Origin: Bacteroidales bacterium 52_46
GTDB lineage: Bacteria; Bacteroidota; Bacteroidia; Bacteroidales; Muribaculaceae
Length of the DNA: 64,000 nucleotides
Reading direction: 5' to 3'
Assembly: GCA_001915385.1 (NCBI GenBank)
Contig: MNQK01000031.1
Location: 133,166-197,165, forward strand
Part shown: positions 1-10,721 of the stretch, piece after piece
Layout of the letters: each line of letters begins with the position of its first letter
Numbering within the stretch: the first letter of the stretch is position 1
The notes under the pieces: model-generated
What the model was told of the DNA's origin: nothing
What the model saw: the letters and a program-made list of their open reading frames with translations, nothing else
The model's database searches: none
Program-made: the position numbers and the translations under genes

Positions 1-1952
1 GACGTGAAGCGATTGCTCATCCATATACCAAGGTCGGTGTTGAACACATCGGCCTTTGATGTCTCGTTGGGATTGGCGGCTGTGAAGAATATCATTCCCG
101 GAAAACCGACCGACGGCTCGACCACGCTACCCGAGTAACATGTCTCGACAAACATACCGAGCTTCCGGTAGCCCTTTCTGTCACGTAGCGCAGAAAGCGC
201 AGTATGCACATCGGAAGCGCTGATACCCGACGACCTGTCACCCCAGCACAATGTCCCCGGCATGCCGTGACCGCTTATGAATACGAATATATTGGTACCA
301 TTGTCGCCGTCGAGCACCACCGGAGTAGCGGCAGTCGGGACACCCGCCACGATATTGCAGAAATCGGTAGGCGAAAGGTCGGCCAGACGGTAATCGATAT
401 TTACGTCATCATACAGATTGTCGCCTCCGGGAGCGACACGTATCACACCTTTCTCGGGATTGTGCGAGTCGCCGGCGATATCGTCGGCCATGATAAGTAT
501 GATATTGTCGTCGGTATAGCCGTGTTCCTTCAGCAGTTGATACATTGCAAGCACATCGGCCTGATGGCGGTAATTGCTCCAGCCTGTCGAAGTCGCCACA
601 AGCAGCGCGCGGTGCGAGGTCAGAGGGGCGTATGCAATCCCCGCGTCACCCTGTCCGAATTCCTGCATCTGCGTGGCTTTCCAGTTCCATCCGGCAAGAG
701 TGGCGTCAGTGCGGTTGCCTCCGTCGGCAGTGTTATAGTCAAGTATTATATATCCCCCTTCATATACCTTGTAGTTATAATATGTGGTCGACAGGACATT
801 GGTATATACCTTGCTGTCGAAATCGAGCCATCCCGACGCTCCGCGCACGTATGGAGCGTCGCCCCCGGCAAGCGCATTGACCACATTGCGCATATCCTCT
901 CCCATCCATGAACCCATATTGAAGTCACGTCCGTCGACCACCGTGCGCAACGCGTCGCGCAGCGTGGCGTCGGGATGCAGTTCCTGATACCACGCGGCAT
1001 ATACGAGAAGCATTGCGGCATCGTAGAGCTGTGCCGAACCTACAGTCGGAGCGGCACCGAAAAATGTCCTGAACGATACGTCAAATCCCGTTTCGGGATC
1101 GGCACCGAAGCACACTCCCTCTATACCCTCTGCCTTGCGGCCGAGCTGCTCTATCACGTCCGACCCATAGCCGATGTCGGAAAAGAGCAGACGCGGAGCG
1201 GGAGTATTCACCGAATTGAATATATCGACTACCCTCCCTATCTCGGCCACCGATGTCGGGGCGCACACCACATAGTCAGCACCCGACGATGCAGCCGCAC
1301 GGGCAGCCTCATCAATGGTCGAACCGCTGTAATTATGTATACCTTTCACTGTCAGTCCCAGCTCTTTGGCCTGAAAAGCGAACCAGTCGACAAATGTTTT
1401 ACCGTACGGGTCGGAACCGTCGGCAATAAGCCCGACCGATTTGCCGCCGTAGTTCACGACTTTACTGAGCAGCACCTCCGACTGCGTGATGTCGGTTTCG
1501 GTCATGGCCCAAAGATTGCCCGACGAGGCAAATCCGCGCACGAGGTCTTCGGTTGTGGCAAGCGTCATAAACGTCACTCCCGAGCGGCACAGCGTCATCG
1601 CAATCGTACGCGCATCGCCCGAATACAATCCGCCTATCACTGCATACACATCGTCACGCTCCACGAGTTCATGCGCCAGGTTCTCAAGATCTTCGGTCGT
1701 CTCGTCGTAATACTCGATGTTGAGCCTTACGGTTTTGTCACAGTCGGAAAATGCCTGCGCGGTATTGTACTGCAGCAGCGTGAATATACGCTGCCAGTGG
1801 AGGTAGAGACCATTCTCCATAGGGAGCACGACCGCCACAGTCTTTTCAACCGCGGGTTTCTCCTTGCCCGGAGTCATATCATCGTCATCCGAGCAACTCC
1901 ACAACGACAATGACATAATCATTGCACACAATAACAGGATTCTGTTTTTCAT
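1..1952 (-). CDS. Legumain-like C13 family cysteine peptidase fused to an N-terminal periplasmic-binding-protein-like domain; lipoprotein. The C-terminus runs off the window edge.
   Basis: I translated the minus strand by hand from the ATG at 1952-1950. The N-terminus MKNRILLLCAMIMSLSLWSCSDDDD is a lipobox. The C-terminal part contains legumain-type motifs: NYRHQADVLAMYQ, IILIMADD, FVFISGHG (catalytic His-Gly) and MFVETCYSGS (catalytic Cys). The frame is open to position 1. It is absent from the ORF track only because no stop codon lies in the window. Its start overlaps the upstream stop as ATGA. Confidence 0.75.
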   Translation of the reverse strand, partial: MKNRILLLCAMIMSLSLWSCSDDDDMTPGKEKPAVEKTVAVVLPMENGLYLHWQRIFTLLQYNTAQAFSDCDKTVRLNIEYYDETTEDLENLAHELVERDDVYAVIGGLYSGDARTIAMTLCRSGVTFMTLATTEDLVRGFASSGNLWAMTETDITQSEVLLSKVVNYGGKSVGLIADGSDPYGKTFVDWFAFQAKELGLTVKGIHNYSGSTIDEAARAAASSGADYVVCAPTSVAEIGRVVDIFNSVNTPAPRLLFSDIGYGSDVIEQLGRKAEGIEGVCFGADPETGFDVSFRTFFGAAPTVGSAQLYDAAMLLVYAAWYQELHPDATLRDALRTVVDGRDFNMGSWMGEDMRNVVNALAGGDAPYVRGASGWLDFDSKVYTNVLSTTYYNYKVYEGGYIILDYNTADGGNRTDATLAGWNWKATQMQEFGQGDAGIAYAPLTSHRALLVATSTGWSNYRHQADVLAMYQLLKEHGYTDDNIILIMADDIAGDSHNPEKGVIRVAPGGDNLYDDVNIDYRLADLSPTDFCNIVAGVPTAATPVVLDGDNGTNIFVFISGHGMPGTLCWGDRSSGISASDVHTALSALRDRKGYRKLGMFVETCYSGSVVEPSVGFPGMIFFTAANPNETSKADVFNTDLGIWMSNRFT

Positions 1953-3001
1953 AGCTGCGATTTCTCCTTTCTGACAGCCTCGTCACGCGCGGCGGCCACT
2001 ACCGGTTCATATTGCGTGAAAAATGGCGACAACTGCCAGTCGGTATAGCCGCTGGCGAGTCCGAACACCGCCGATTCGGGCAGTTCGCCGTCAGTAAGCC
2101 AAGCCTCCAGATAGTTGTAGACAACGCTGTCGATATGTTTTATCACGCTGCCGGTGATATTGCGCGACAACGCCGACTGGTCTATATCCATGCCGGCGGT
2201 AAGAGGGGCGTCGGCATACTCGCGTGTATAGCGGTATATGCCCGAATTACTTCCTCCGGCTACCGGGAATACGAAGCTGTAGCTTTGCGACCACCGGCTC
2301 ATATTCCGGTAAGCTAACTGAGCCGATACATATCCCGTCCAGTCGTCGGCGAGATATTCGGTATCCACTTTTGCTGCGGAAGTCGTAGCATAAAAACCGT
2401 CACTGAAACTTGCCGCGGCCTGCGCCGTGACTGCATCGTCGGGATGCGCGAGCACAATCAGCGCGTCTTTGCTTTCGCCCGTCTGACGCAATCCGTCGAT
2501 ATATGTGGCTGCCGTCACTCCGGCGAGATACGACGCTCCGGCCATCGTCAGATGGAATGTAGTCACCGGAAGTCCCATCTCATTGTCGCTCTCAAACAGA
2601 AGAATACGCTTATTGGCCGAAAGCGGATGACGGCGCAGACACATACCGGTCAAGGCCTCGTAGTCGTCACTCGCCACCACAAACAGTGCCGGCACATCGC
2701 TTTCGGGTAGAGACAACCAGTCGGTAAGCAACCGTTCGGCCTCATTGATGGAGCCTGGAGAATACTGGTAGACATCGGCCTTACCATAAAAGTTTTTCTT
2801 GAACGACTGCACACCTGCCAGTATGCAGTCGTTATATCCCTGGTCGCCGAGTCCGCCGGGAGCATACATCACCACAACCTGCGGCCGGGGCGAAGCAAGC
2901 GGCGTATACGCATCATCGTCCGACGAGCAAGCAGACAGCCCCGACAGTGCCGTCGCCGCCAACAATGCCGACAATATGCTATTTTTACAATATCTGTTCA
3001 T
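1949..3001 (-). CDS. BMP-family (basic membrane protein, PnrA-like) substrate-binding lipoprotein
   Basis: 350-aa ORF with lipoprotein signal LSGLSACSSDDD. The segment VVVMYAPGGLGDQGYNDCILAGVQ resembles a BMP/Med-type periplasmic binding fold. Confidence 0.65.
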   Translation of the reverse strand: MNRYCKNSILSALLAATALSGLSACSSDDDAYTPLASPRPQVVVMYAPGGLGDQGYNDCILAGVQSFKKNFYGKADVYQYSPGSINEAERLLTDWLSLPESDVPALFVVASDDYEALTGMCLRRHPLSANKRILLFESDNEMGLPVTTFHLTMAGASYLAGVTAATYIDGLRQTGESKDALIVLAHPDDAVTAQAAASFSDGFYATTSAAKVDTEYLADDWTGYVSAQLAYRNMSRWSQSYSFVFPVAGGSNSGIYRYTREYADAPLTAGMDIDQSALSRNITGSVIKHIDSVVYNYLEAWLTDGELPESAVFGLASGYTDWQLSPFFTQYEPVVAAARDEAVRKEKSQL

Positions 3002-3068
3002 AGTTCCAATTAATAAAACGGAATTTTTCTTTAAAAATTATACGCCTGCCGATAGTTCTTGCTAATTG

Positions 3069-10043: not shown

Positions 10044-10178
10044 AATAATGTGATGATGAAAGTAAGCAGCTGCCGAATTAAACATGCAGAAACGGCACTT
10101 CAATTTATAACAGCTGCCTACCGGTTTGCGGGTTGTTATGATTTATGGAATGTTTTGAAACGGTATTCTATTCACCGG

Positions 10179-10721
10179 TTATTTTGCGGGAATTGTATAA
10201 GTAAGGTCGCAAAGTTTGTGGGATTTCTTGACATAATTTACAAGTTCGCTGCCGTAGATTGTCATGTGGGCGGTCTTGACCATGCCCGGGTCAACGCGCT
10301 CGGGCTCCTTTTTGCCGGTACGGTATACGTAGATGATGACTTTGCATGAATAGTCAAGCGTATATACCTTGTCGGGATTGATTTCAGGAATATCGGTTTT
10401 GGTATTGGCGGTTACCGCGAAGCTGCACTCGGTCGGATACACATCGAGATTTTCGCCGGTGATAACCTGTTGGTATGCGTCAGTGTCGATATTCTCTTTC
10501 ACCGTCTGGCCTGTGATATTGGTATAAGCCGACTCAACTGCAAAAAAGTTAAGATAATCCTCGCTCAGGTCAGCCTCATACGTGATGGTGACCTTTTCGA
10601 TTTTACCGGTTTCGGGTACGACAGGGCCGTTATCATCGTCATCGTCGCCGCAACTTGCAAGCGACACACTCATTGCCATTCCCATCAGAACAGCCATTGT
10701 TTTGAAAAATTTCTGTTTCAT
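10179..10721 (-). CDS. Small hypothetical lipoprotein (180 aa), first gene of the lipoprotein operon
   Basis: Signal peptide plus lipobox SLASCGDDDDD. No recognisable domain. Confidence 0.6.
   Translation of the reverse strand: MKQKFFKTMAVLMGMAMSVSLASCGDDDDDNGPVVPETGKIEKVTITYEADLSEDYLNFFAVESAYTNITGQTVKENIDTDAYQQVITGENLDVYPTECSFAVTANTKTDIPEINPDKVYTLDYSCKVIIYVYRTGKKEPERVDPGMVKTAHMTIYGSELVNYVKKSHKLCDLTYTIPAK

Follow-up and report, generated by a model that had tools for sequence, protein, structure and literature searches.

A stretch of 64,000 nt from Bacteroidales bacterium 52_46 (contig MNQK01000031.1, positions 133,166 to 197,165 of the forward strand; hereafter the window) was analysed for a minus-strand array of lipoprotein genes, in which three paralogous MACPF-domain genes stand upstream of a binding-protein gene and a gene for a binding-protein/legumain fusion. 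Genes were defined by open reading frame (ORF) listing and translation, and domains were assigned by Pfam scan. The window covers the first 650 of the 703 codons of the last gene; the full length of 703 aa was taken from L002 (related loci carry L numbers), a contig 100% identical to window positions 1–14205 in which convergent genes follow. The genes of the array are, in the order of the operon:

10832–10963, minus strand: leader small ORF (sORF), 43 aa, single-pass membrane peptide, first cistron, not a lipoprotein
10179–10721, minus strand: G1, small predicted surface lipoprotein, 180 aa, no family match in Pfam
8523–10043, minus strand: M3, 506 aa from the MKKSII start, BACON and MACPF domains, no C-terminal domain (CTD)
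6563–8521, minus strand: M2, 652 aa, MACPF domain, middle of the array, shorter CTD
4222–6570, minus strand: M1, 782 aa, weak BACON, MACPF and C-terminal domains
3069–4205, minus strand: G5, Trp-rich predicted surface lipoprotein, 378 aa, no Pfam match
1949–3001, minus strand: G6, predicted surface lipoprotein with a Bmp/PnrA-like binding-protein fold, 350 aa, Pfam Bmp
<1–1952, minus strand: G7, predicted surface lipoprotein and last operon gene, Peripla_BP_6 (periplasmic binding protein, PBP) and Peptidase_C13

All seven products from G1 to G7 (G1, M3, M2, M1, G5, G6 and G7) start with a signal peptide that is followed by the lipobox cysteine and acidic residues, and the stretches from the cysteine onwards read CGDDDDD, CSDDD, CEDDK, CSDDD, CSDDD, CSSDDD and CSDDDD. 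A first-pass annotation of the window had read every minus-strand gene from 10721 down to 1 as a lipoprotein; these signals bear it out, and its domain calls were recovered by Pfam. In Bacteroides, the lipoprotein export signal CS(D/E)2 drives surface exposure and packing into outer-membrane vesicles (OMVs) (PMC6222051). The match to this motif indicates that the operon lipoproteins bear the Bacteroidota surface/OMV export signal, and a location at the surface and in OMVs is implied by it (PMC6222051). NCBIfam and PADLOC gave no matches for the operon lipoproteins.

Along the operon from G1 to G7 the junctions measure 135, 1, −8, 16, 67 and −4 nt; the 8-nt overlap of M2 and M1 lies at 6563–6570 and the G6 stop overlaps the G7 start as ATGA at 1949–1952, both as annotated before. 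The gap of 135 nt between G1 and M3 is that obtained with the canonical MKKSII start of M3, and the range of 1–76 bp reported earlier for the gaps holds only if the alternative TTG start at 10103 is used. Terminator scanning found no terminator-like site within any intergenic gap. As counts were at or under shuffle expectation, the sigma-70 promoter/terminator scan was uninformative, and a scan for the Bacteroidetes −7 motif was used in place of the sigma-70 scan. Co-directional genes, short or overlapping junctions, a kept gene order and one upstream promoter (see below) were found together, and the best explanation of the array is a predicted operon of eight cistrons, namely the leader sORF and seven surface-exported lipoproteins.

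The block M3-M2-M1-G5-Bmp-PBP/C13 was found with the same order and sizes in five Muribaculaceae-type lineages, the window type included. Identities (%) to the window proteins in the other four were:

L007–L011: M3 54, M2 63, M1 61, G5 55, Bmp 62, G7 75
L099 (abundant Muribaculaceae): M3 54, M2 65, M1 61, G5 48, Bmp 61, G7 76
L015/16: M3 36, M2 49, M1 48, G5 37, Bmp 55, G7 63
L013: M3 34, M2 47, M1 44, G5 22, Bmp 55, G7 66

In a sixth lineage (L097/98), where the contig ends, M3-M2-M1 was seen at 27–29% identity. The best match of each window paralogue was its positional orthologue across lineages, and the flanking genes were different in every lineage, which argues that the block is inherited as a unit. 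By gene content and order, the six genes M3-M2-M1-G5-Bmp-PBP/legumain thus form an evolutionarily conserved unit. Within the locus, conservation is highest for G7 (63–76% identity versus 22–65% for the others), and G5 and M3 diverge fastest among the block proteins. G1 was seen in window-type loci only (absent in L007–L011, L013, L015 and L099) and appears as an optional accessory gene; weak G1-like matches elsewhere did not reappear when jackhmmer was run with the mature region, and a single-sequence AF2 model of G1 (pLDDT 44) was unusable. The view of the first-pass annotation that the array is one co-regulated surface system is supported by the short or overlapping gaps, the single −7 box and the kept six-gene order (with G5 at 22–55% identity), which comparative genomics, the check proposed there, recovered across independent lineages. 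Its seven lipoprotein genes are present as described; the system is rather made up of six core genes, the optional G1 and the leader sORF.

The window comes from an uncultured member of the gut Bacteroidales, and relatives of its locus were Muribaculum/Muribaculaceae metagenome-assembled genomes (MAGs). Megablast against plasmids and phages gave no match, and no mobile-element context was found. A peptide-pattern scan detected a G5 relative in 1 of 185,579 GTDB species representatives (a Muribaculum sp. MAG), while 54 blocks of a metagenome collection list an identical G5 protein; set against each other, these counts suggest that the locus is strain-variable or poorly represented in reference genomes.

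The three MACPF proteins scored 50.5 bits (M1, 4e-13), 36.0 bits (M2, 1e-8) and 25.4 bits (M3, 1.8e-5) with Pfam MACPF (cut-off 21.5), and M3 matched BACON at 7.5e-7. Phmmer of M1 alone against the PDB gave no matches and a profile of 16 sequences was needed; this retrieved GNIP1Aa (1.7e-19), then Mpf2Ba1, Plu-MACPF, perforin and C6/C7/C8/C9, and its N-terminal domain (NTD) matched the BACON domain of BoGH5A. Identities between the paralogues are 22–29% (M2 vs M1 22%, M2 vs M3 29%). The MACPF signature (Y/W-G-T/S-H-F/Y-x6-G-G) was compared in an alignment (A4) of four orthologues each: it is complete in M1 (YGTHLVIEALAGG, YGTH..GG), the second Gly is replaced in M2 (YGTHVVVYSKLGA, GG to GA, LGA) in 4/4 orthologues, and His is changed to Gly in M3 (YGTGVVVGSTLGG, YGTG), again in 4/4. 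The alignments indicate that M1, M2 and M3 are ancient, non-redundant paralogues with paralogue-specific signature changes.

Their accessory domains are graded, from the longest C-terminal part in M1 over M2, which has the CTD of M1 in common, to none in M3, which ends shortly past the MACPF domain in all lineages. M1 terminates in a FISUMP-like domain that is weak in the window (Fib_succ_major 0.0085) and over the cut-off in the L025 relative (2.6e-8). M3 is always first in the array in six lineages and was never seen there outside an array with longer MACPFs; single M1-like MACPFs adjoin the Bmp/G7 pair in L012, L018, L022 and L025. The beta-amphipathic moment of the second transmembrane hairpin (TMH2) region is strongest in M3 (0.86–1.04) and weakest in M1 (0.52–0.68), the TMH regions of M1 being Ser-rich. 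Two irregular copies of M1 were noticed: in L010 (7638–9987), a strain 87% identical at the nucleotide level, M1 is broken up into ORFs of 245 and 544 aa, and in L019 (2940–4514) it appears shortened. These may be cases of pseudogenisation of the platform subunit (a role considered below) or assembly errors.

G7 matched Peptidase_C13 (7e-44) and Peripla_BP_6 (5e-19) in Pfam and legumain in the PDB (4d3x, 2e-32); its N-terminal type-I PBP domain matched 4mlc and 3td9 and belongs to the Leu/Ile/Val-type binding-protein family. The motifs SGHG (H562) and ETC (C605) and residue N460 align with legumain His148, Cys189 and Asn42, and R462, H463 and E603 are the equivalents of the S1-pocket residues Arg44, His45 and Glu187; all six are invariant in 19 homologues. 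The alignment indicates that the legumain catalytic apparatus is intact, and cleavage is presumably specific for Asn. Homologues of G7 are labelled in NCBI either 'legumain' (e.g. OKY84830.1) or 'ABC transporter substrate-binding protein'. G6, the gene product encoded directly upstream, scored 55.7 bits with Pfam Bmp (5e-15, cut-off 24.1) and gave only weak PDB matches, to BmpD and TpN38 (~1e-3). No ABC permease or ATPase genes were found beside G6 in the window locus or the related loci inspected. Just past the left edge of the window, two perfect hairpins (CCGCGGTT-AAAA-ACCGCGG) were seen in L002 (14366–14500) after the G7 stop and before the convergent genes; they possibly represent a terminator or REP-like element that lacks a T-tract.

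A candidate cleavage site was found in the acidic linker between BACON and MACPF, where [DE]-N occupies one column in M1 (4/4), M1-like proteins (4/4) and M3 (4/4) and in none of four M2. DN[GS] was present in six further M3 homologues down to 27% identity; among these, P0287 and P0288 differ little from each other, and some come from lineages that are included in the counts above. The linker [DE]-N is the kind of site that an asparaginyl endopeptidase would be expected to cut.

When searched with a hidden Markov model (HMM) of its mature region, G5 was confined to MACPF loci save for L021, where a MACPF gene was not detected. Weak 'G5-family' matches to many small lipoproteins proved to be signal-peptide artefacts and were gone with the mature-region HMM. 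Comparison with the PDB gave no detectable relative of G5 among solved structures. G5 is encoded together with the MACPF genes and is a candidate immunity or assembly-control factor.

The region upstream of the array holds two divergent promoters and the gene of a predicted membrane-anchored regulator, with helix-turn-helix (HTH) and transmembrane (TM) parts:

10988–11018, minus strand: probable operon promoter, −33 TTG at 11018–11016 and −7 box TAATTTTG at 10995–10988
11034–11107, minus strand: GTACAAA repeat cluster, probable operator, two perfect and further degenerate copies
11202–11209, plus strand: −7 box TAATTTTG of the regulator, mirror image of the operon box, invariant in five loci
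11214–12893, plus strand: divergent regulator, TPR, TM segment and AraC HTH (Pfam, profile, TM prediction)

The operon −7 box is the only minus-strand TAnnTTTG between 157 and 13579 and lies upstream of the leader sORF. When the intergenic region between regulator and sORF was aligned for five loci (A5), this box proved invariant or near-invariant, with TTG ~20 nt upstream. Perfect copies of AGTACAAA at 11107–11100 and 11095–11088 are the only two in the 64-kb window, and degenerate GTACAAA copies lie at ~11076–11071 (inverted) and 11041–11034. GTACAAA elements form conserved columns in the five-locus alignment, clusters of two to four copies occupy the same promoter position in L007–L013, L018 and L022, and the cluster is probably the operator of the AraC-type regulator. 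The −7 box of the regulator ends 4 nt (11210–11213) ahead of its ATG in all five aligned loci, which suggests a leaderless or near-leaderless mRNA. An invertible promoter was considered and rejected; the sole perfect inverted pair consists of the two divergent −7 boxes, 10 nt each.

In most related contigs the leader sORF (MDDKVTFSEKFKQRLPLLSAVALVVAVLLAVVIIVCLLRLAFF, TM segment at residues 13–43) is among the called genes. It is 43–56% identical in L007–L011, L012, L018 and L022 (tblastn), always marks the 5' end of the lipoprotein operon and is kept in loci whose G7 is only 69–77% identical to that of the window. This conserved sORF, overlooked in the first-pass annotation, is the true first cistron, and its peptide may act together with the TM regulator in the membrane. 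It was found wherever the TPR-AraC-type promoter region was found (L007–L012, L018, L022).

The regulator matched HTH_18 in Pfam (4e-15, 56 bits; AraC HTH at residues 469–548). A profile of 12 sequences (A7) matched the TPR proteins Pins/LGN (5e-13, positions ~69–260) and AraC HTH domains (476–562). With one TM segment at 376–407, the layout is signal/anchor, periplasmic TPR domain, TM and cytoplasmic AraC HTH, in agreement with the earlier call of a TPR-sensor/transmembrane/AraC regulator at 11214–12893. The link between regulator and operon drawn there is likewise supported, by the common intergenic region, the conserved divergent promoters and the clustered GTACAAA repeats; control by the regulator has to be qualified, since its gene is truncated, degraded or not adjacent in L001, L005, L013, L015 and L099. 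Of 51 loci with 8 kb or more of upstream sequence, 21 held a regulator homologue in the flanks fetched around the Bmp/G7 pair. The gene is divergent and adjacent in the window type, L007–L011 and L022 and not adjacent to the block in L015 and L099; L013 holds remnants of 47 and 89 aa only (1296–1671, 1791–1851) and has kept the GTACAAA pair upstream of M3. In L001 and L005, strains ~97% identical to the window, a deletion of 2,749 bp (window 11454–14202) takes the regulator beyond codon 80 and a PepSY-like gene and ends ~60 nt past the 3' end of the tmRNA, with AC(A/G)AG microhomology at the junction. As the lipoprotein operon is intact in both, these strains are natural regulator knock-outs.

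Homologues of G7 formed 1,155 clusters at E≤1e-10, and a metagenome scan for G7-related loci returned 80 loci. Wherever the upstream sequence of a related locus is intact, G7 is immediately preceded by a Bmp gene, and the neighbours of the pair are variable co-directional lipoprotein arrays with C-S-D/N-D-D signals. The cargo of L065 (273–15429) includes two C11 (clostripain-type) peptidases and an M15 D-Ala-D-Ala peptidase. Given variable cargo and a recurrent regulator, the conserved core is formed by the regulator, Bmp and PBP/legumain; gene neighbourhoods thus mark Bmp and PBP/legumain as the constant part of a much larger family of loci that encode lipoproteins throughout and differ in cargo, and the MACPF triplet with G5 appears as one type of cargo between promoter and core. 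The Bmp and PBP/C13 pair is a very common yet unstudied surface module of gut Bacteroidales. In relatives from the human gut (L065, L032, L074, L077, L078), the pair was seen inside arrays of more than 12 lipoprotein genes, which also hold paralogous small lipoproteins with nearly identical signal peptides.

Among known systems, BSAPs kill strains bearing a specific outer-membrane protein or lipopolysaccharide glycan receptor. They are single-gene MACPF surface lipoproteins whose receptor is determined by the CTD alone; some of them carry a BACON NTD (PMC12853789). Of 214 MACPF representatives, 20 are without CTD, 12 of them with a BACON NTD, and their receptor recognition is unexplained (PMC12853789). 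M1, M2 and M3 all combine the surface-lipoprotein signal (lipobox, C-S/E-D-D) with a MACPF domain, and M1 and M2 are, like BSAPs (BSAP-1 to -4; BT_3439, 3KK7), acidic-signal MACPF lipoproteins with a CTD. Unlike the single-acting BSAPs, the three old paralogues are inherited as an ordered array together with G5, Bmp and legumain, and a CTD is not found on each of them, M3 having none. The BSAP structure 3KK7 (BT_3439) was not retrieved by the MACPF profile.

BSAPs are the closest family at the sequence level, and the closest functional precedent is the CDCL system. The two- or three-component CDCL lipoprotein toxins of Bacteroidota combine a long platform subunit that binds the membrane with a short one that polymerises, need proteolytic activation near the N-terminus by a C11 Arg-specific protease on the target cell, and are co-transcribed with a surface lipoprotein, BcdI, that gives immunity and blocks pore assembly on the producer (PMC11169675). 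As in BfCDCL and EaCDCL, the genes for the pore-former lipoproteins are adjacent and of unequal length with the short gene first, here as three SpII lipoprotein paralogues of 782, 652 and 506 aa (M1, M2, M3). Unlike CDCLs, all three proteins carry PF01823 MACPF and not PF01289 in the Pfam scan, there are three tiers, the protease is an operon-encoded C13 legumain, and the candidate counterpart of BcdI, G5, is without detectable similarity to anything solved. Circumstantial hints at activation by proteolysis and at an immunity lipoprotein are the legumain gene in the operon, the conserved D-N linker site, and G5 and G1 as candidates for immunity.

The complement membrane attack complex (C5b-C6-C7-C8-C9) also employs several diverged MACPF paralogues with graded accessory domains, and the MACPF profile matched C6, C7, C8 and C9; the likeness is an architectural analogy only, the proteins described here being lipoproteins with BACON, FISUMP-like and unassigned domains. 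In complement, assembly is set off by proteolysis; the initiating subunits are poor at membrane insertion, the barrel is made by the polymerising C9, and lipid-anchored CD59 shields the host's own cells. With legumain (MEROPS C13), G7 shares the conserved His-Gly, Glu-x-Cys, Asn42 and Arg44-His45 equivalents; unlike legumain it has no C-terminal LSAM prodomain, and it carries an N-terminal lipoprotein anchor and a fused type-I PBP domain and is always paired with a Bmp-like lipoprotein. No characterised bacterial legumain of the G7 type was found in the literature searched. The C11 surface proteases (fragipain, DpnA/DpnB) resemble G7 as clan CD cysteine proteases that are surface lipoproteins, and they process co-resident lipoproteins and toxins (PMC11169675; references in PMC12853789); unlike them (Arg/Lys specificity, no binding-protein fusion), G7 belongs to family C13 and is PBP-fused.

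The reading that we favour, tentatively and as falling somewhat short of an even chance, is that the locus encodes a MACPF pore former of three components, matured by a protease and displayed on the cell surface and OMVs, of the complement/CDCL kind and with self-protection by G5. The regulator would sense an envelope or extracellular cue via its periplasmic TPR domain and activate the operon through the GTACAAA repeats, and the lipoproteins would be flipped onto the cell surface and outer-membrane vesicles. The Asn-specific legumain domain, gated perhaps by the fused PBP domain and the Bmp partner, would cleave M1 and M3 at [DE]-N between the lipid-tethered BACON and the MACPF domain and so release or activate them. 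M1 would serve as the targeting platform, binding the target via its CTD and the FISUMP-like lectin-type domain and nucleating assembly, with M2 as adaptor; the CTD-less M3, with the most amphipathic hairpins, would polymerise into the beta-barrel pore, like C9 on C5b-8 or CDCL-S on CDCL-L. G5, the fastest evolving together with M3, would be the best candidate for a self-protection or assembly-control factor like CD59 or BcdI. The fixed order, the translational coupling (1-nt gap, 8-nt overlap) and the paralogue-specific signatures speak for subunits that are differentiated and depend on each other. Competing Bacteroidales are the likeliest targets.

Several points weigh against this reading. 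The BSAP-type MACPFs studied to date act alone, and the activating protease of CDCLs sits on the target cell and not on the producer. Asp231 of the legumain S1 pocket has no clearly aligned or conserved equivalent in G7, and M2 is without the D-N site, which leaves its processing unexplained. MACPF genes were present in 22 of 96 loci and absent from 74; with Bmp/legumain mostly found without MACPFs, the role of the pair may be general and not toxin-specific. Several lineages can do without the regulator, which is otherwise frequent. Since the TMH regions were set by alignment and not by structure, the order of amphipathicity is no more than suggestive, and a eukaryotic target is conceivable as the closest solved MACPFs are insecticidal. 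What lies beyond domain identity, conservation and cis-elements is what we infer, heteromeric assembly from genomics only.

A more far-reaching version joins the pore former to the wider locus family; as a joint reading we consider it doubtful. In it, Muribaculaceae and related Bacteroidales would possess a bacterial counterpart of the complement cascade that is built from MACPF proteins proper, with M1 as initiator, M2 as adaptor, M3 as polymerising subunit and G5 as CD59-like factor, and, on a broader scale, a hitherto unrecognised, widespread 'lipoprotein maturation cassette'. The 'convertase' would be the Asn-specific PBP-fused legumain with Bmp, whose cleavage may be ligand-gated, and the cassette of Bmp, PBP-legumain, TPR-AraC regulator and leader peptide would activate diverse surface and vesicle cargo. 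MACPF/BSAP and CDCL toxins shape the strain composition of the gut. If the favoured pore-former reading is true, complement-like multi-component assembly would extend from CDCLs to true MACPF proteins, and CTD-less BACON-MACPF 'BSAPs' would be subunits recruited by CTD-bearing partners, which would answer the puzzle in PMC12853789; bacterial peptidases of the legumain type (C13) would also gain a first function. Descriptions of multi-MACPF operons, of bacterial PBP-legumain fusions or of the Bmp/C13 pair were not found in the literature searched, and the G5 family and the widespread legumain/Bmp cassette are possibly new.

Of the competing explanations, one takes Bmp and PBP/legumain with the TPR-AraC regulator as a generic module for lipoprotein maturation or shedding, the MACPF block being interchangeable cargo and pore formation autonomous. 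We rate this as unlikely. In its favour, the pair recurs, amid arrays that vary greatly, in all related loci whose upstream sequence is intact; cargo elsewhere includes the two C11 peptidases and the M15 peptidase; G7 is conserved beyond all other proteins of the locus (63–76% vs 22–65%); the sORF, promoter boxes and GTACAAA are kept in loci with one or no upstream MACPF (L012, L018, L022); and a C11 protease sheds Bacteroides surface lipoproteins, as cited in PMC12853789. A generic module leaves the conserved D-N linker site of M1/M3 and the strict association of G5 with MACPFs unexplained, and it is compatible with, not exclusive of, a protease-matured pore former.

The proposal that M1, M2 and M3 are three independent BSAP-type toxins, each killing a different competitor, with G5, Bmp and PBP/legumain unrelated and sharing the promoter only, seems to us improbable to a similar degree. 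It draws on the precedent of the characterised BSAPs, which are single-gene and CTD-specified (PMC12853789), on the CTDs of M1 and M2 and on the lone M1-like MACPFs that adjoin Bmp/G7 in L012, L018, L022 and L025. If the toxins were independent, separate gains and losses would be expected, yet the triplet is inherited as a block; M3 is without CTD in every lineage and never outside the array in the six lineages examined; and the fixed order, translational coupling and paralogue-specific signatures point to co-dependent subunits.

A cytolysin directed against eukaryotic cells (host epithelium, gut protists or predators) instead of bacteria is very unlikely. The closest solved relatives are the insecticidal GNIP1Aa and Mpf2Ba1, followed by perforin and complement, and no receptor-swap gene is evident beside the operon, unlike BSAP loci. 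On the other side, all characterised MACPF/CDCL lipoproteins of Bacteroidales hit related bacteria (PMC12853789, PMC11169675), and in Bacteroidota, BACON and FISUMP-like domains typically occur in the context of surface glycans; the target range as such is not readable from sequence. Least probable is the coupling of lysis to nutrient capture suggested in the first-pass annotation, in which the MACPFs lyse prey or host and Bmp and PBP bind released nucleosides or amino acids: the families agree with it (Bmp/PnrA for G6, Leu/Ile/Val-type for the G7 N-terminus), and Bacteroides surface lipoproteins capture nutrients such as B12, but the operon and its surroundings contain no ABC permease/ATPase or TonB-dependent transporter in any lineage or locus version examined, both binding-protein folds have surface-export signals and a binding protein at the cell surface is unable to supply an ABC importer in the inner membrane, the PBP domain forms one polypeptide with a protease, G6 matches Bmp structures only at ~1e-3, and the Bmp and PBP/C13 pair occurs mostly with non-lytic cargo, among non-MACPF lipoproteins.

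On the far side of the regulator, a genomic island at the tmRNA was considered and is not supported, the deletion junction described above being microhomology with no att repeats and no integrase seen. The tmRNA gene (ssrA, 14223–14622, minus strand, Rfam 130.9 bits, tag GEKQYALAA) points with its 3' end towards the PepSY/AraC/MACPF side. Between it and the regulator, and adjoining the latter, lies a gene for a PepSY_like lipoprotein or secreted protein (13009–13527, plus strand, 82 bits), which accompanies the regulator in window-type and L010 loci and not in L007–L011.

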